Origin: a virus
Taxonomy: Duplodnaviria > Heunggongvirae > Uroviricota > Caudoviricetes
DNA length: 7,989 nt
Reading direction: 5' to 3' (one strand)
IMG/VR virus record: IMGVR_UViG_3300029878_000067
The notes under the pieces are model-generated. The model saw only the letters and a program-made list of their open reading frames with translations. It did no database searches and was not told the DNA's origin. Shown piece by piece: positions 2,752 through 7,892 of the stretch. Position numbers and translations under genes: made by a program. Position 1 is the first letter of the stretch. Every line of letters begins with the position of its first letter.

Positions 2752-3533
2752 ACCCCGTTTTTGTTTCGCTTACGTGGCATGCTGGCCACCGGCTTTCCGT
2801 AGACGGATGCCCCTTTAATGGGGATCACCCGGAACAGCCCATGTTTTTTCGAGCGTTCATACACAATGGTCGGGTCAATCCCGCCAGTATCCCAGCAGAT
2901 ACGGGATACCGACATCTCTGCACCATTCCGGCGGGTATAGGTTTTATTGATGGCCTCATCCACACGCAGCAGCGTCTGTTCATCGTCGTGGCGGCCCATA
3001 ATAATCTGCCGGTCAATCAGCCAGCTTTCCTCACCCGGCCCCCATCCCCATACGCGCATTTCGTAGCGATCCAGCTGGGAGTCGATACCGGCGGTCAGGT
3101 AAGCCACACGGTCAGGAACGGACGCTGAATAATGCTCTTTCCGCTCTGCCATCACTTCAGCATCCGGACGTTCGCCGATTTTCGCTTCCCACGTCTCACC
3201 GAGCGTGGTGTTCACGAAGGTTTTACGTTTTCCCGTAAGGGTGTTGCGCTGCTTATGCTCTATGAAGTAGGCATAAACACCCAGCAGCATTTTGGAATAA
3301 CCGACACGGGCANNNNNNNNNNNNNNNNNNNNNNNNNNNNNNNNNNNNNNNNNNNNNNNNNNNNNNNNNNNNNNNNNNNNNCAGCGCCCTTCCTGGTATG
3401 CGGATTCTTTCGGGAGATAGTAACTGGCATCCGCCCATTCAACGGCAGTCTGTGGCTCCGGCCTGAACAGGGCTCGCAGCCCGGCGCGTACATCACGCCG
3501 CAGAATATCAATCTGACTGTTCGATATATTCAC
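2709..3533 (-). pseudogene. A: Terminase large subunit A remnant: N-terminal ~99 codons joined to a C-terminal nuclease-domain segment, then fused out of frame to the B remnant; contains a 69-nt N-run
   Basis: Seen in sequence: translation [15 protein letters not shown]...ARVGYSKMLLGVYAYFIEHKQRNTL is followed directly by TGKRKTFVNTTLGETWEAKIGERPDAEVMAERKEHYSA...MPRKRNKNGV. Established knowledge: in lambda gpA these two blocks are separated by roughly 300 residues (ATPase-domain region), so there is an internal deletion at about 3236. After KNGV the frame runs into B-derived DNA and stops at 2709. The start overlaps Nu1 by 26 nt as in lambda. Confidence 0.85.
3313..3381. other. Run of 69 ambiguous bases (N): assembly gap or masked segment inside the terminase A remnant
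   Basis: Directly visible in the sequence; appears as X residues in three ORF-track translations. Confidence 0.97.
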
Positions 3534-4053
3534 TCAGCAACCCCGGTATCAGTTCATCCAGCGCGGCTGCTTTGTTCATGGCTTTGATGATATCCCGTTT
3601 CAGGAAATCAACATGTCGGTTTTCCAGTTCCGGAAAACGCCGCTGTACCGAGAGAGGGATCCCGTCAAGAATACTGGCAATTTCACCTGCGATCCGTGAC
3701 AGCACGAAAGTACAGAATGCGGTTTCCACCACCTCTGCGGAGTCTCTGGCATTCTTCAGCTCCTGTGCGTCGGCCTGCGCACGCGTAAGTCGATGGCGTT
3801 CGTACTCAATAGTCCCAGGCTGGAGATCTGCCTCACTGGCAGCCCTGTAATCCACAACCTCTTTACGGAGTTTTTCATTTTCGATATCAGCTTCCCTCTG
3901 CGCATACCACTGAATTGCCATGGCGGTATCAAATACAGATTCAACGCCCTTACCACCTCCGGAGACGCAAGGGAGTCCCTGAGACTGCCAGCGTTCAATC
4001 GTTCGCGGATCCACGTTGAAAATTTCGGCAAGTTTCTTTTTATTAACCTTCAT
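3508..4053 (-). CDS. Nu1: Terminase small subunit Nu1 (181 aa), apparently intact
   Basis: ORF-track protein [36 protein letters not shown]... The C-terminal ~100 residues ([60 protein letters not shown]...LSEYIEQS) match my recollection of lambda gpNu1 nearly exactly; the N-terminal DNA-binding region is similar but diverged. Lies cos-proximal with a 26-nt overlap onto the A start, as in lambda. Confidence 0.9.
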
Positions 4054-4080: not shown

Positions 4081-4190
4081 CCGACATGAAAGTGCCCGAA
4101 AATGACTTTTTTAGGCGTTTTCATGTCGGACCTTTTACGGATTCGATATTAGAAAAAACAAATAGTTATGTTCGAGAAGTACCGACATGA
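4081..4190 (-). promoter_or_regulatory. cosB: three copies of a CCGACATGA-core repeat (4081..4089 direct, 4121..4129 inverted, 4182..4190 direct) with an AT-rich A-tract spacer (about 4141..4175) between the cosN-proximal pair; candidate Nu1 binding sites R3/R2/R1 with a bend/IHF-type site
   Basis: Seen in sequence: GCCGACATGAAAGTG, TTTTCATGTCGGACC (reverse complement TCCGACATGAAAA) and ACCGACATGATTTTC. Inference: the arrangement resembles the multi-R-site cosB architecture of lambdoid phages; site identity is not lambda-like, consistent with the diverged Nu1 N-terminus. Confidence 0.5.
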
Positions 4191-4229
4191 TTTTCCCCGG
4201 AAAATTTTCATAAATAGCGAAAACCCGCG

Positions 4230-4241
4230 AGGTCGCCGCCC
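4230..4241 (-). other. cosN: cosN 12-nt cohesive-end sequence (GGGCGGCGACCT on the minus strand)
   Basis: Exact 12-mer AGGTCGCCGCCC on the plus strand at 4230..4241, embedded in lambda-like flanks, about 177 bp from the Nu1 start codon (lambda spacing is about 179). Confidence 0.85.
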
Positions 4242-4464
4242 CGTAACCTGTCGGATCGCCGGAAAGGACCCGCCAACGACTTTCGCGTGCAGGCATTAAA
4301 AATTTTGCAGTTCCATGCCTAGTTGAAACCTCGATTTCTATAACATCCAATTTTGTAAATTTAGATATAGCTCAACTTTTCCCAATGTTTTCAAGTGTAT
4401 AAAAACAATTGGCGTTACGCCATAACACTATACTTAGGATAAGTAAAGATTTTAAGGAGTTTTA

Positions 4465-5532
4465 ATGAGTCAACATCAATATTACCCACAGCTGAAATGG
4501 AAGCCTGCTGAATATGAATCTCTGATGCTTTTAGATCAAACTACGCTCTCTGGTTTTACTCCGATCATTACCATTCCAGACATAGACTGGGATTATGAAA
4601 ACGAATGCTACAAGAAGAGTTTGAGTTCTTACTTATCTGACTTCGGTATTAACCTTGCGGCATCCTGGAAAGCCAATCGTCCTGTTTTGCTGGATGTTAA
4701 ATATTTAGATAAACATGGTTCGAGCCGCCATCATCCTCTAGATATGTGTATCCAAGATGCTAGAGTAAATGGTAAGGAAATTATCCCTGTTGTCTCTCCC
4801 GCATATTCAACAAACTATATACATGCTGTTCAACGCAACTTAATCAATGGGCTCGCTATATCTATCACCCCCCAGACATGGCACCAATTCACAAGTCTGG
4901 TTAACCACTTAAATATTCATCCTAGTTTAATTGATGTAATCATTGATTTTGGAGATATTCAAAACGCAACTGATAGTTTAAAACAACAAGCATTAAGCAT
5001 GGTCAACACATTATCAGGCCAAGCTCCGTGGAGAAACTTGATTTTATCTTCAACCGCATACCCTGCATCACAGGCAGGGATACCGCAACATCAAGTTCAT
5101 CATATTCCGCGCCATGAATACGATCTTTGGATGTATGTAGTACAGAATTTTAGCAATGGAAGAACGCCAAGTTTTAGTGATTATCCCACCGCTAGCTCTA
5201 CCATTACGAGCGTAGACCCACGCTTCATGTCTCAGTATGTCTCAGTGAGATATTCGAACGATACCTCATGGATCTTTGTAAAAGGTACCGCAGTTAAAGG
5301 AAATGGATGGGGCCAAACTAAAAACTTATGTACTACCCTTGTTAGTTCGCCAGAGTATCAAGTCTTTGGCTCCAAATTTAGTTGGGGGGATGATTACATT
5401 TACCAAAGATCATTAGGCGCTAACAAATCTGGCGGCTCTAAAGAATGGCGTAAAGTTGCACATACGCACCATATTACGTTAGTCGTGAGACAGCTTTATT
5501 GGTTGGCGCAGACTCAGCCTGCCAAGCCTTAA
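4465..5532 (+). CDS. Hypothetical protein, 355 aa, AT-rich cargo gene; function unknown
   Basis: Seen in sequence: long ORF with a perfect AAGGAG at 4454..4459, 5 nt before the ATG; GC content visibly lower than the flanking phage genes (by eye, not computed); AT-rich upstream region with -10-like hexamers (TATAAA 4398..4403, TATACT 4429..4434). Protein begins MSQHQYYPQLKWKPAEYESL; no nucleotide-binding or catalytic motif that I can assign with confidence. Confidence 0.72.
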   Translation: MSQHQYYPQLKWKPAEYESLMLLDQTTLSGFTPIITIPDIDWDYENECYKKSLSSYLSDFGINLAASWKANRPVLLDVKYLDKHGSSRHHPLDMCIQDARVNGKEIIPVVSPAYSTNYIHAVQRNLINGLAISITPQTWHQFTSLVNHLNIHPSLIDVIIDFGDIQNATDSLKQQALSMVNTLSGQAPWRNLILSSTAYPASQAGIPQHQVHHIPRHEYDLWMYVVQNFSNGRTPSFSDYPTASSTITSVDPRFMSQYVSVRYSNDTSWIFVKGTAVKGNGWGQTKNLCTTLVSSPEYQVFGSKFSWGDDYIYQRSLGANKSGGSKEWRKVAHTHHITLVVRQLYWLAQTQPAKP

Positions 5533-6094
5533 CTTTCCAGCCTACGCGTTTCTTTAAGGCTGTTCTGACTTCAAGCCTGAGATTCGCTATTGGAATATTT
5601 TCCGCAATAATATTCCATAACTCAAATCGGGGCTTGCTTTTGATTCCTTTGGAATAGCCCCATCGTTCAAGTACGTCGATACATTCATCTTTCCAAAGCA
5701 ATTGAGCGAGCATCAATGAGTTATGGTTTCGATTAAGCTTTTCTCCACGCATGTGCTTTATAAGAATGGCGCCTTTTGGCCCAACAGAAACCGTTTTAAC
5801 GCCCCACCAACCTGGGATTAACTTTAATGCTCCCTCAAGATGTTTCTCAGCTACGACAAGAGTAACCTTGTCCATTACAGAAGAATAATGCTTGATTTGA
5901 AGAGGCAAACGCTCCAAAGAGTCATATTCACTTTTGAGCTCGTACCCGTGTATAACACCATTTATTACAGCAATGTCTGCTCTACTGGCGCCAAGGGATA
6001 TGGAAAATTCATCGACCACAAGGCAGTCAGGATCTAAATGCGATTCTTTCAAAAGCTTATGATGCACCGCGAACCTAACATCTTGATCTTTCAT
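5474..6094 (-). CDS. Hypothetical protein, 206 aa, with a PD-(D/E)xK nuclease-like motif; AT-rich cargo gene
   Basis: Seen in sequence: ORF with AAGGAG (plus-strand CTCCTT at 6100..6105) 5 nt before the ATG. Protein contains LVVDEF ... SRADIAVING ... HGYELKSEYD, i.e. an acidic residue, then D, then E-x-K about 11 residues later, in an alternating strand/helix context. Inference: this is the signature of restriction-endonuclease-like folds. Convergent with, and overlapping by 59 nt, the 355-aa gene. Confidence 0.7.
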   Translation of the reverse strand: MKDQDVRFAVHHKLLKESHLDPDCLVVDEFSISLGASRADIAVINGVIHGYELKSEYDSLERLPLQIKHYSSVMDKVTLVVAEKHLEGALKLIPGWWGVKTVSVGPKGAILIKHMRGEKLNRNHNSLMLAQLLWKDECIDVLERWGYSKGIKSKPRFELWNIIAENIPIANLRLEVRTALKKRVGWKVKAWQAESAPTNKAVSRLT

Positions 6095-6122
6095 GACTTC
6101 TCCTTACTCCCTCCGTTACTGA

Positions 6123-6128
6123 ATTATA
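6123..6128 (-). promoter_or_regulatory. Candidate -10 hexamer (perfect TATAAT on the minus strand) about 30 nt upstream of the 206-aa gene start
   Basis: Plus-strand ATTATA at 6123..6128 is TATAAT on the minus strand; no good -35 match at 16..18 bp spacing; an adjacent tandem repeat occupies the -35 zone. Confidence 0.3.
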
Positions 6129-6132
6129 GCGC

Positions 6133-6151
6133 ACTGCATTTTACTGCATTT
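6133..6151. repeat. Tandem direct repeat ACTGCATTT x2 with 10-bp periodicity, immediately upstream of the candidate -10 of the 206-aa gene
   Basis: Plus strand reads CACTGCATTT TACTGCATTT at 6132..6151; one helical turn apart; located where a -35 element or activator/repressor site would sit. Confidence 0.5.
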
Positions 6152-6445
6152 GAGAGATTTGACCACTTCAATCACAAAATGCTTATCTGCAGCAACAAGA
6201 TTCATAGCCATACGACTATGGTGATTACCTTTTGTCTGGAAAACTGACCATTCCACGAAGATCAGATAGGTCTATAGAATCTTGGTTTGTCATAGCGTTC
6301 GCCTTACTTTGAGATGAACCTTTGCTGCATAGGAGATCAGCCCGTCAAGGCTCACCAGCACTAACTGACTACTCAAAGGCTCATTCCAAAGGGTTTGGTT
6401 CGACGTGGTTGAGTGCGCTGCGGTGCGCGGTGAAATACCTGTACA

Positions 6446-6473
6446 AAAATGCCCCGCATCTGCGAGGCATTTT
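6446..6473 (-). terminator. Terminator-like hairpin about 38 bp downstream of Rz, flanked by an A-run and a T-run (potentially bidirectional)
   Basis: Seen in sequence: AAAAATGCCCCGCATCTGCGAGGCATTTTCC. GCC/GGC and CGC/GCG pair around an ATCT loop with A-T extension; on the minus strand the stem is followed by TTTTTGTAC (5 U), on the plus strand by TTTTCC (4 U). No folding energy was computed. Confidence 0.42.
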
Positions 6474-6510: not shown

Positions 6511-6963
6511 TTATTTTAAGCACTGCGTCCTGATGTACTCCTGCAAGTAGTTAACCTGCGCGGTTATCTTGTCGATTCCACTTCGGAGACGGTAATAATT
6601 GAGTTCAGCATCTGCTGTAAGTCCTGGGCTTTCTCCATTGCCCATGCCGCTGGCTCCGGTCGTTGACTTTGCACAGGTGGCGGCGACTTGCAGGCGCTTA
6701 CGCCCAACAGAAACATCAGCACGTAGACTTTCGATAGTCGCGTTAGCATCAGCAAGCTCCTTTGTGTATCTTGCGTCGAGTTCTGCTACATCACGTTGAC
6801 GCTTCCGCATGTCAGCGATGATGTACGTGGCTTTATCGCGCTGTTCTTTATAGGTAATGGCATTATCACGGTAATGATTAACAGCCCATGACAGGCAGAC
6901 GATGATGCAGATAACCAGAGCATAAATAATCGCGGCGACTCTGCTCACTGATCTATCCCCCAA
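6511..6963 (-). CDS. Rz: Spanin inner-membrane subunit Rz (i-spanin), 150 aa
   Basis: Protein has an N-terminal TM segment [30 protein letters not shown] and a coiled-coil-like remainder; closely resembles remembered lambda Rz; sits immediately downstream of the endolysin with a 19-nt overlap. Confidence 0.85.
6564..6755 (-). CDS. Rz1: Spanin outer-membrane lipoprotein subunit Rz1 (o-spanin), embedded in the +1 frame of Rz
   Basis: ORF entirely inside Rz in another frame; signal-peptide-like N-terminus with lipobox-like VSAC followed by a proline-rich segment [16 protein letters not shown], the typical Rz1 architecture. The true start could be an internal Met. Confidence 0.72.
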
Positions 6964-7478
6964 CAGGCTAATGCGCTTTCCTGGTCACGACGAATAACCT
7001 GTCCATAGCAGTTATTTGAACGTATGCGGCAATCGCGCCCACCATCTTTTATCCACCAGCGAATCGCCTCGCATGCACCTTTACGATCACCGGCATTCAG
7101 CCGCTTATAAAACGTCGACGGGAAACACTTACCGGGGCCAATGTTATAGGGACAGAATGACGCTATACCCGCTTTTTGTGGTTCGGTCAGTGGTACTTTA
7201 ATATTGCGCTCCACCCATGCCAGCGCCTTATCACGCTCAATGGCGTTGACCTGGTCGCATTTTTCCTTCGACAGTTTCATACCGGGAAAAACGGGTTTTC
7301 CATCCACCATCGTGGCACCCCGACAGATGGTCCAGATGCCGGACCCATCGCGGTATGCCGTTGTGTGGTTACCTTCTTTTTCATCCAGAAACTGGTCGAG
7401 AATATCAGGCGCGGGCGCACCGACGGCAATCAGTGCCAGAACGGCAGCCGACAGGCCGTATCTGATTTTTGCGTTCAT
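6945..7478 (-). CDS. R: Endolysin R, T4-lysozyme-type (GH24) muramidase with N-terminal SAR (signal-anchor-release) domain, 177 aa
   Basis: Catalytic-triad spacing E-x8-D-x5-T in [23 protein letters not shown]; Gly/Ala-rich weakly hydrophobic N-terminus [16 protein letters not shown] typical of SAR endolysins; from memory, near-identical to E. coli cryptic-prophage lysozyme RrrQ and similar to phage 21 R. Confidence 0.9.
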
Positions 7479-7541: not shown

Positions 7542-7892
7542 TTAAGGTTGTGATTCCGGAGGAGTCTTCAGAGAACCAGTAATTCTTCCCGGTAGCTTTC
7601 CTTTGTAGGTTATCCATACATTCTGCGCCTCTAAAATTACGGGGCGCTTTTCCGGCGACTGCTCATCCCCTTCACATAACCCGGCAGCAACATCCAGGAA
7701 GACCTGTCTGATGCTCATTCTGGCTGCTGCCTCATAAAACTCCAGCGCGGCACCTTCAACACGGTCCAGCGAGATGTCCAGGTCAAAAATTTCACCGTCA
7801 AAGCGTTTTTTGTCCCGTAACGCTAAAGTTACCGTAACTTTATTCTCAAAATTGCGGATCCCTTTCACAATCAGTTCATAGTTTTGAGTCAT
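7542..7892 (-). CDS. Small phage protein of unknown function between holin and endolysin (YdfR/DUF1327-like, assignment from memory), 116 aa
   Basis: ORF with start ATG at 7892..7890, 5 nt after the holin stop; its position between the S and R homologs mirrors the essQ-ydfR-rrrQ order of the E. coli Qin prophage as I recall it. No motif verified. Confidence 0.55.
   Translation of the reverse strand: MTQNYELIVKGIRNFENKVTVTLALRDKKRFDGEIFDLDISLDRVEGAALEFYEAAARMSIRQVFLDVAAGLCEGDEQSPEKRPVILEAQNVWITYKGKLPGRITGSLKTPPESQP

Follow-up and report, generated by a model that had tools for sequence, protein, structure and literature searches.

Proteins of the Beta family, named after the beta protein of satellite phage P4, occur in two validated anti-phage systems. 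The gop-beta-cII system of P4 (Rst_gop_beta_cll in DefenseFinder and PADLOC) protects Escherichia coli from lambda and P1 when cloned with its native promoter, and its beta protein is described, in earlier literature as relayed by the same source, as neutralising the toxicity of gop, a small membrane toxin (Rousset et al., 2022, PMC9122126). PD-lambda-2 resembles a toxin-antitoxin system in its behaviour, and its Beta-family component, PD-lambda-2C, is needed for defence but not for toxin neutralisation (Vassallo et al., 2022, PMC9519451). Two further points of comparison are the sce7725/sce7726 pairs (NF033831/NF033832), which are two-gene units of sporadic distribution, and the morons, lambda bor among them, that sit at the Rz-cos junction of lambdoid phages. 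The present analysis concerns a cassette of two convergent genes, beta and a nuclease gene, in a 7,989-nucleotide (nt) stretch of Caudoviricetes DNA (IMG/VR virus record IMGVR_UViG_3300029878_000067), the whole of which is referred to below as the window.

Judged by its sequence relationships, this locus is best regarded as a two-gene core of the P4 system that lacks gop. With a rough probability of 0.55, the cassette serves as an anti-phage module carried by a prophage, in which the nuclease would be the DNA-cutting effector and beta a regulatory or sensing partner, possibly an enzymatic one. The Beta family and its link to defence were already known; new in this analysis are the assignment of beta to the triosephosphate isomerase (TIM) barrels with a candidate active site, the tail-to-tail overlap of the two genes across phyla, the cassette boundaries, the promoter-like blocks, and the asymmetry in evolutionary rate between beta and the nuclease.

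A Beta-Family Protein and Its Nuclease Partner

The open reading frame (ORF) at 4465..5532 on the plus strand (ATG at 4465, stop at 5532) is a genuine coding gene under purifying selection. It encodes a protein of 355 amino acids (aa) with the N-terminus MSQHQYYPQLKWKPAEYESL and is preceded by the Shine-Dalgarno sequence AAGGAG (4454..4459, plus strand), which lies 5 nt before the ATG and of which AAGGA is kept in all aligned relatives. A protein 100% identical to it is the representative of a 412-member sequence cluster, and comparison of orthologues at 77-79% identity gives a nonsynonymous rate (dN) of ~0.15, a saturated synonymous rate (dS), and a dN/dS of ~0.06-0.08.

The 355-aa protein is a member of the already known P4 Beta protein family. 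In the Pfam search its only match was PF14350 Beta_protein (E 8.2e-56; 190.4 bits against a cutoff of 27), with residues 6-342 aligned to model positions 1-342 of 342; PHROG 9159 matched at 7e-153. An earlier note on this DNA, made from the letters alone, had found it weakly reminiscent of the PF14350-like Beta proteins and had placed no Walker, helix-turn-helix, or methyltransferase signature, both of which are borne out, and the N-terminal Y-x-P-x-L-K-x-K-x-x-E pattern that it singled out proves to be a family signature, in which Y6 never varies and the conservation of P8 and E16 reaches at least 90% among 53 diverse members. Its description of a 355-aa protein of unknown function holds as regards the protein, which is real, but not as regards function, since RefSeq already names it "beta family protein" and its relatives take part in the two validated anti-phage systems. 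The PADLOC PD-Lambda-2_C models score the window protein at 110 and 88 bits, higher than the P4-type "beta" model does (37 bits; 3.5e-10). Because all 53 of the diverse Beta-family members sampled match the PD-Lambda-2_C models, PD-lambda-2C and P4 beta are one family. This large family comprises 2447 clusters (50% identity) with an E of 0.001 or below; among the 150 matches listed, those that are full-length have a single domain and measure about 350-410 aa.

The partner gene (5474..6094, minus strand; ORF list, NCBIfam, PADLOC) encodes a 206-aa sce7726/Phage_P4_cII protein, in agreement with the nuclease-like partner of that length proposed in the earlier note. It matches NF033832 sce7726 at 183.7 bits (cutoff 70) and the PADLOC "cll" model at 3e-31, and its homologues carry Pfam PF26915 Phage_P4_cII. 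Its AlphaFold2 model (mean predicted local distance difference test, pLDDT, 87) matches nucleases in structure comparison and comprises a PD-(D/E)XK core and a helical C-terminal domain, with residues 188-206 forming a disordered tail; the catalytic motif E29, D40, E52-x-K54 is invariant in 30 homologues. As modelled, the partner is a PD-(D/E)XK nuclease fold with its catalytic motif intact. Nucleases resembling sce7726 are encoded by 298 phage records, a beta-like protein by only 7. The nuclease-encoding phages are for the most part large ones that infect Staphylococcus, Bacillus, and Lactobacillus (records of about 140-230 kb in the rows listed), and the nuclease family thus exists independently of the cassette as well.

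Comparison With Described Anti-Phage Systems

The closest resemblance is to the P4 system, in which homologous beta and cII genes are likewise adjacent and convergent and the beta protein is also 355 aa long; moreover, both gop-beta-cII and the window cassette directly adjoin the cos site of their element, and both are non-essential cargo. The two differ in the length of the nuclease (206 aa in the window, 264 aa for P4 cII), in the junction of the 3' ends (a 59-nt overlap in the window, a 27-nt gap with an annotated terminator in P4), and in the carrier, which is a lambda-like prophage in the one case and a P4-like satellite in the other. They differ also in gene content: upstream of the window beta gene, where the P4 system has gop, lie promoter-like DNA and cos, and a tblastn search of the window for gop gave a best E of 3.9. 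In a set of 140 loci, drawn from genomes, phage records, and viral contigs, tblastn found gop in P4 only, so the two-gene form appears to be the usual one.

PD-lambda-2 shares with the window a Beta-family component, whereas its other two components, the HigB-like A and the Xre-peptidase B, are both absent from the window, where beta is instead partnered with a nuclease and neighboured by Nu1 and cos. Three partner sets are thereby represented for Beta-family proteins, namely gop with cII, a HigB-like protein with an Xre-peptidase, and the nuclease alone.

The sce7725/sce7726 pairs resemble the window cassette in being sporadically distributed two-gene units, and the window nuclease is a true sce7726 member. 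The resemblance does not extend to beta: the comparison with sce7725-type models suggested in the earlier note returned no match of NF033831 to the window protein at E up to 1, and only the partner matched its counterpart, sce7726. The sce7725 model was touched weakly by 10 of the 53 Beta-family members (best E 0.008), and sce7725 is, by sequence, at most a distant sister family of beta. Proteogenomics has detected a "sce7725 family protein" among the proteins of clinical isolates of E. coli; the sister family, at least, is therefore expressed under ordinary culture conditions (PMC8203672).

Predicted Structure and Evolutionary Rates of Beta

Structure prediction, which the earlier note had proposed, yielded a confident AlphaFold2 model of beta (pLDDT 93.1; predicted template modelling score 0.91; alignment of 22 sequences), in which alternating strands and helices are followed by a C-terminal helical bundle (residues 277-350). 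The model matches TIM barrels structurally, and beta is thus predicted with high confidence to be one; no close solved relative of the fold was found by structure comparison, nor did structure and literature searches find a solved structure of a Beta-family protein or a published mechanism for beta, cII, or PD-lambda-2C. Across 53 Beta-family sequences of 21-49% identity, including P4 beta, Rac-SA53, and that of a Gordonia phage, eight residues are invariant (Y6, P33, D77, D161, P200, D239, W328, and H336 in window numbering, all present in the window protein) and sixteen are nearly so (P8, E16, H56, P108, V109, R133, R216, Y240, R262, Y263, G274, Q284, D309, I312, G323, and R329). In TIM barrels, the C-terminal ends of the strands are the usual place of the active site, and it is at or just after these ends that D77, V109, R133, P200, R216, D239, and Y240 are placed in the beta model. 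A set of Asp, Arg, and His residues such as this points to a site that binds metal and phosphate, which would be a candidate active or ligand-binding site.

A TIM barrel next to a nuclease invites comparison with restriction-modification: by analogy with the TGT/DpdA transglycosylases, beta might mark self DNA, leaving the nuclease to cut DNA that is unmarked. This arrangement is improbable, given that the TGT/DpdA structural matches of beta are indistinguishable from its generic TIM-barrel matches. Pfam and NCBIfam searches placed no methyltransferase or other modification-enzyme family on beta, and no recognisable DNA-modifying enzyme is paired with the nuclease.

The two proteins also diverge at different rates. 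Beta is less conserved than the adjacent nuclease in 27 of the 28 loci compared with the window and equally conserved in the remaining one (L007); representative identities of beta and nuclease at the same locus are 30% and 53%, 24% and 43%, and 77% and 85%, respectively, and in one group of loci the nuclease stays at ~51-56% identity while beta falls to 27-31%. Such an asymmetry is the pattern expected of a sensor or specificity component, and it may reflect diversifying selection on beta or a shuffling of beta types.

Convergent Overlap and Cassette Boundaries

In the window, the 3' ends of the beta and nuclease genes overlap by 59 nt (5474..5532, both strands), and the nuclease side of this overlap encodes the disordered C-terminal tail. 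The 140 loci contain about 60 distinct beta/nuclease pairs (loci L003, L004, L006-L009, L011-L013, L038-L055, and L096-L135 were examined for the pair), and in all of these ~60 the two genes are adjacent and convergent, in taxa as distant as Enterobacterales, Vibrio, Acinetobacter, a Bacteroidetes metagenome-assembled genome, and phages of Gordonia and Mycolicibacterium. The 3' ends overlap by 11-89 nt in every pair other than those of P4 (27-nt gap) and one viral contig (L055; 14-nt gap). As the gene order in P4 is gop (+), beta (+), cII (-), the convergent layout of beta and cII is ancestral. Within the 59-nt overlap of the window, neither a terminator nor a structured RNA was found (fold z -0.09, without a G+C-rich inverted repeat). 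For a functional gene pair, a conserved architecture of this kind is unusual. An obligate convergent overlap that lacks a terminator suggests mutual control of the two genes, whether transcriptional, antisense, or collision-based. It may further be speculated that Q-dependent late transcription, which would run through the nuclease gene in the sense direction and through beta in the antisense direction, could silence or unleash the system during lytic growth.

The boundaries of the cassette were defined by alignment with nine other loci, including genomes of Pantoea, Pectobacterium, Klebsiella, and Edwardsiella as well as IMG/VR contigs, whose cassettes are 77-85% identical to that of the window. 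On the left, a conserved block (TTAGATaTAGCTCAA ... TTTTCA ... TATAAA; 4361..4403, plus strand) marks the candidate edge. The block, with its TATAAA element, lies ~60 nt before the beta ATG and, although a consensus promoter scan made no call on it, we infer from its conservation a candidate beta promoter. A nearby hairpin, TGGCGTTACGCCA at 4410-4422, was also considered and was dropped, as it is not conserved in related cassettes. On the right, the edge is given by ~85 nt upstream of the nuclease gene (6095..6180, minus strand), where conservation is near-complete in the nine cassettes. This region contains, all on the minus strand, a Shine-Dalgarno sequence AAGGAG (6105-6100), a perfect TATAAT (6128-6123), and TGGTCA-16-TAAAAT (6165-6138), the last of which was called by the promoter scan. 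A tandem AAATGCAGT repeat (6151-6143 and 6141-6133, minus strand) with a 10-nt period is situated between the two -10-like elements and is conserved in cassettes of other genera; it could be a candidate operator for autoregulation. Conservation stops beyond both blocks, where the sequences of different loci are unrelated in the cassette alignments, and the edges of the mobile unit are set accordingly. The cassette also differs in composition from its surroundings, with a G+C content of 38-44% compared with 49-64% in the flanks and phage backbone.

A tight two-gene unit with independent promoter-like blocks would also be compatible with an addiction or toxin-antitoxin module that stabilises the prophage, with the nuclease as toxin, beta as an enzymatic antitoxin acting by modification and not by mere binding, and any defence as a side effect. 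The enzyme-like invariant residues of beta would suit such a part, as would the toxin-antitoxin-like behaviour of PD-lambda-2 and the neutralisation of gop ascribed to beta in the relayed P4 literature. Nevertheless, the beta-like component of PD-lambda-2 is dispensable for toxin neutralisation and needed for defence, the 355-aa beta exceeds the proposed toxin in size, which is unusual for an antitoxin, and the convergent, non-operonic layout is atypical of type II systems. On these grounds, a module of this kind is considered unlikely.

Prophage Context and Mobility

The window comes from a lambda-like prophage of E. coli, and its positions 4100-6300 are 100% identical to E. coli WP5-S17-ESBL-10. 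By gene and family calls, the minus strand encodes a DUF1327/YdfR protein (7542-7892), a lysozyme (6945-7478), Rz (6511-6963), and Nu1 (3508-4053). A nested 63-aa ORF within Rz (6564-6755, minus strand) with a lipobox-like LLGVSAC corresponds to the Rz1 o-spanin expected at that place; the identical RefSeq locus leaves this Rz1-like ORF unannotated. The ORF of the large terminase subunit is broken by 69 N at 3313-3381, a masking or assembly gap rather than biology, and in the identical RefSeq locus the terminase gene is intact (1.9 kb). The exact lambda cohesive-end sequence, GGGCGGCGACCT, identifies cosN at 4230-4241 (minus strand), and its flanks (context 4180-4275) look to us the same as the left and right ends of lambda. 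A 71-aa ORF that matches phrog_11159 (4135-4350, minus strand) was weighed as a third gene of the cassette and rejected, as it spans cosN; phrog_11159 may itself have been built from spurious ORF calls across cos. Just downstream of Rz, a G+C-rich hairpin, AATGCCCCGCATCTGCGAGGCATT (6448-6473), flanked by an A-run and a T-run, was noticed by eye; it went unreported in the consensus scan and has the appearance of a terminator acting in both directions where the phage backbone meets the cassette side. Neither Rfam families nor tRNAs were found in the window.

The cassette sits between Rz and cosN, in the interval that holds bor in lambda. As the earlier note had anticipated from the sequence, this position is bor-like and beta is antisense to late transcription, with lysozyme, Rz, Nu1, and terminase all encoded on the minus strand and beta on the plus strand. 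With bor and the other morons found at this junction in lambdoid phages, the cassette shares its slot and orientation; bor, a small lipoprotein, is unrelated to the cassette in both protein and function.

Of 5426 complete E. coli genomes, 126 (2.3%) carry the two-gene module in full, and none of the lambdoid phage records searched contains it. Cassettes of this type are found at sites typical of prophage accessory genes. In Klebsiella prophages (L136-L138), the cassette occupies a lysis/terminase junction with a terminase of a different type, whereas it adjoins a CI/S24 repressor in Acinetobacter (L013-L015) and an integrase in Vibrio (L139-L140). In one of the Vibrio loci (L140), the cassette has genes for a HipA_C kinase and a HIRAN-domain protein at a distance of 5-6.5 kb. 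By its sequence distribution, the cassette is horizontally mobile, non-essential prophage cargo.

This distribution bears on a role in the lytic cycle, whereby the nuclease, co-directional with late transcription, would take part in DNA processing, repair, or host-DNA degradation (as do MmcB-like or recombination nucleases) and beta would inhibit it in lysogeny. Although lone sce7726-like nucleases are indeed common in lytic phages of Staphylococcus, Bacillus, and Lactobacillus, a lytic role is quite unlikely for a cassette that is non-essential, so sparsely carried in E. coli, missing from the lambdoid records, and transferred among unrelated prophage backbones and positions; furthermore, its P4 homologues lie in a non-essential region and confer defence (PMC9122126).

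Discussion

The anti-phage reading is favoured because of the P4 and PD-lambda-2 precedents, the partner sets in which Beta-family proteins are found, and the lower conservation of beta relative to the nuclease. It is further supported by the homology of both proteins to P4 beta and cII, the intact motif and fold of the nuclease, the confident TIM-barrel model of beta with its conserved residues, the constant pairing of the two genes, the promoter-like blocks and low G+C content of the cassette, and its placement at prophage accessory-gene sites. What we infer for the window cassette, namely a defence role, an effector, an enzymatic activity of beta, and antisense control through the overlap, could fit together as follows. 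The cassette (~4350-6185) would be a moron of the lambda-like prophage, placed between its lysis genes and cos, and in the lysogen the two genes would be transcribed towards each other from their own promoters. The sce7726/cII protein, as a PD-(D/E)XK DNase with a helical C-terminal domain, would be the effector, and beta, as the faster-evolving TIM-barrel regulator or sensor with a metal-dependent active or ligand-binding site, would either restrain the nuclease or license it, up to the moment when a superinfecting phage disturbs beta. The nuclease would then attack DNA, directly or by way of abortive infection.

Several points weigh against a defence role. The window proteins share little identity with the validated ones of P4 (22% for beta and 26% for cII), and gop, the toxic partner of beta in the P4 literature so far as it is relayed, is absent from the window. 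A literature search found no published test of the gop-less beta/nuclease form on its own. The occurrence of lone sce7726-like nucleases in many lytic Staphylococcus, Bacillus, and Lactobacillus phages indicates that the family is not confined to defence. As for beta, the evidence for a catalytic role consists of residue conservation and predicted strand positions. Lastly, the P4 system targets lambda, yet the window cassette rides a lambda-like phage; the cassette would therefore need a way to spare its own phage.

A more far-reaching proposal, tentative and on balance doubtful, is that beta founds a catalytic class of TIM barrels, lacking any solved relative, that makes, destroys, or transfers a nucleotide- or nucleic-acid-derived group and thereby gates the cII nuclease, gop, and the Xre-peptidase alike. 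The convergent overlap would then be an antisense or transcriptional-interference switch that sets the beta:nuclease ratio and is flipped by late transcription or by a superinfecting phage.

Should the window hold merely one more prophage defence cassette, the present assignment would be a useful annotation and nothing beyond. Beta-family proteins are, however, widespread and occur in at least three defence architectures, of which the window represents the minimal and apparently commonest form (beta and nuclease, without gop). Because this form is minimal and occupies a well-understood, lambda-like prophage site in E. coli, the window cassette would be an easy system for testing the role of beta, and the TIM-barrel prediction, the invariant residues, and the conserved convergent overlap provide direct targets for mutagenesis.
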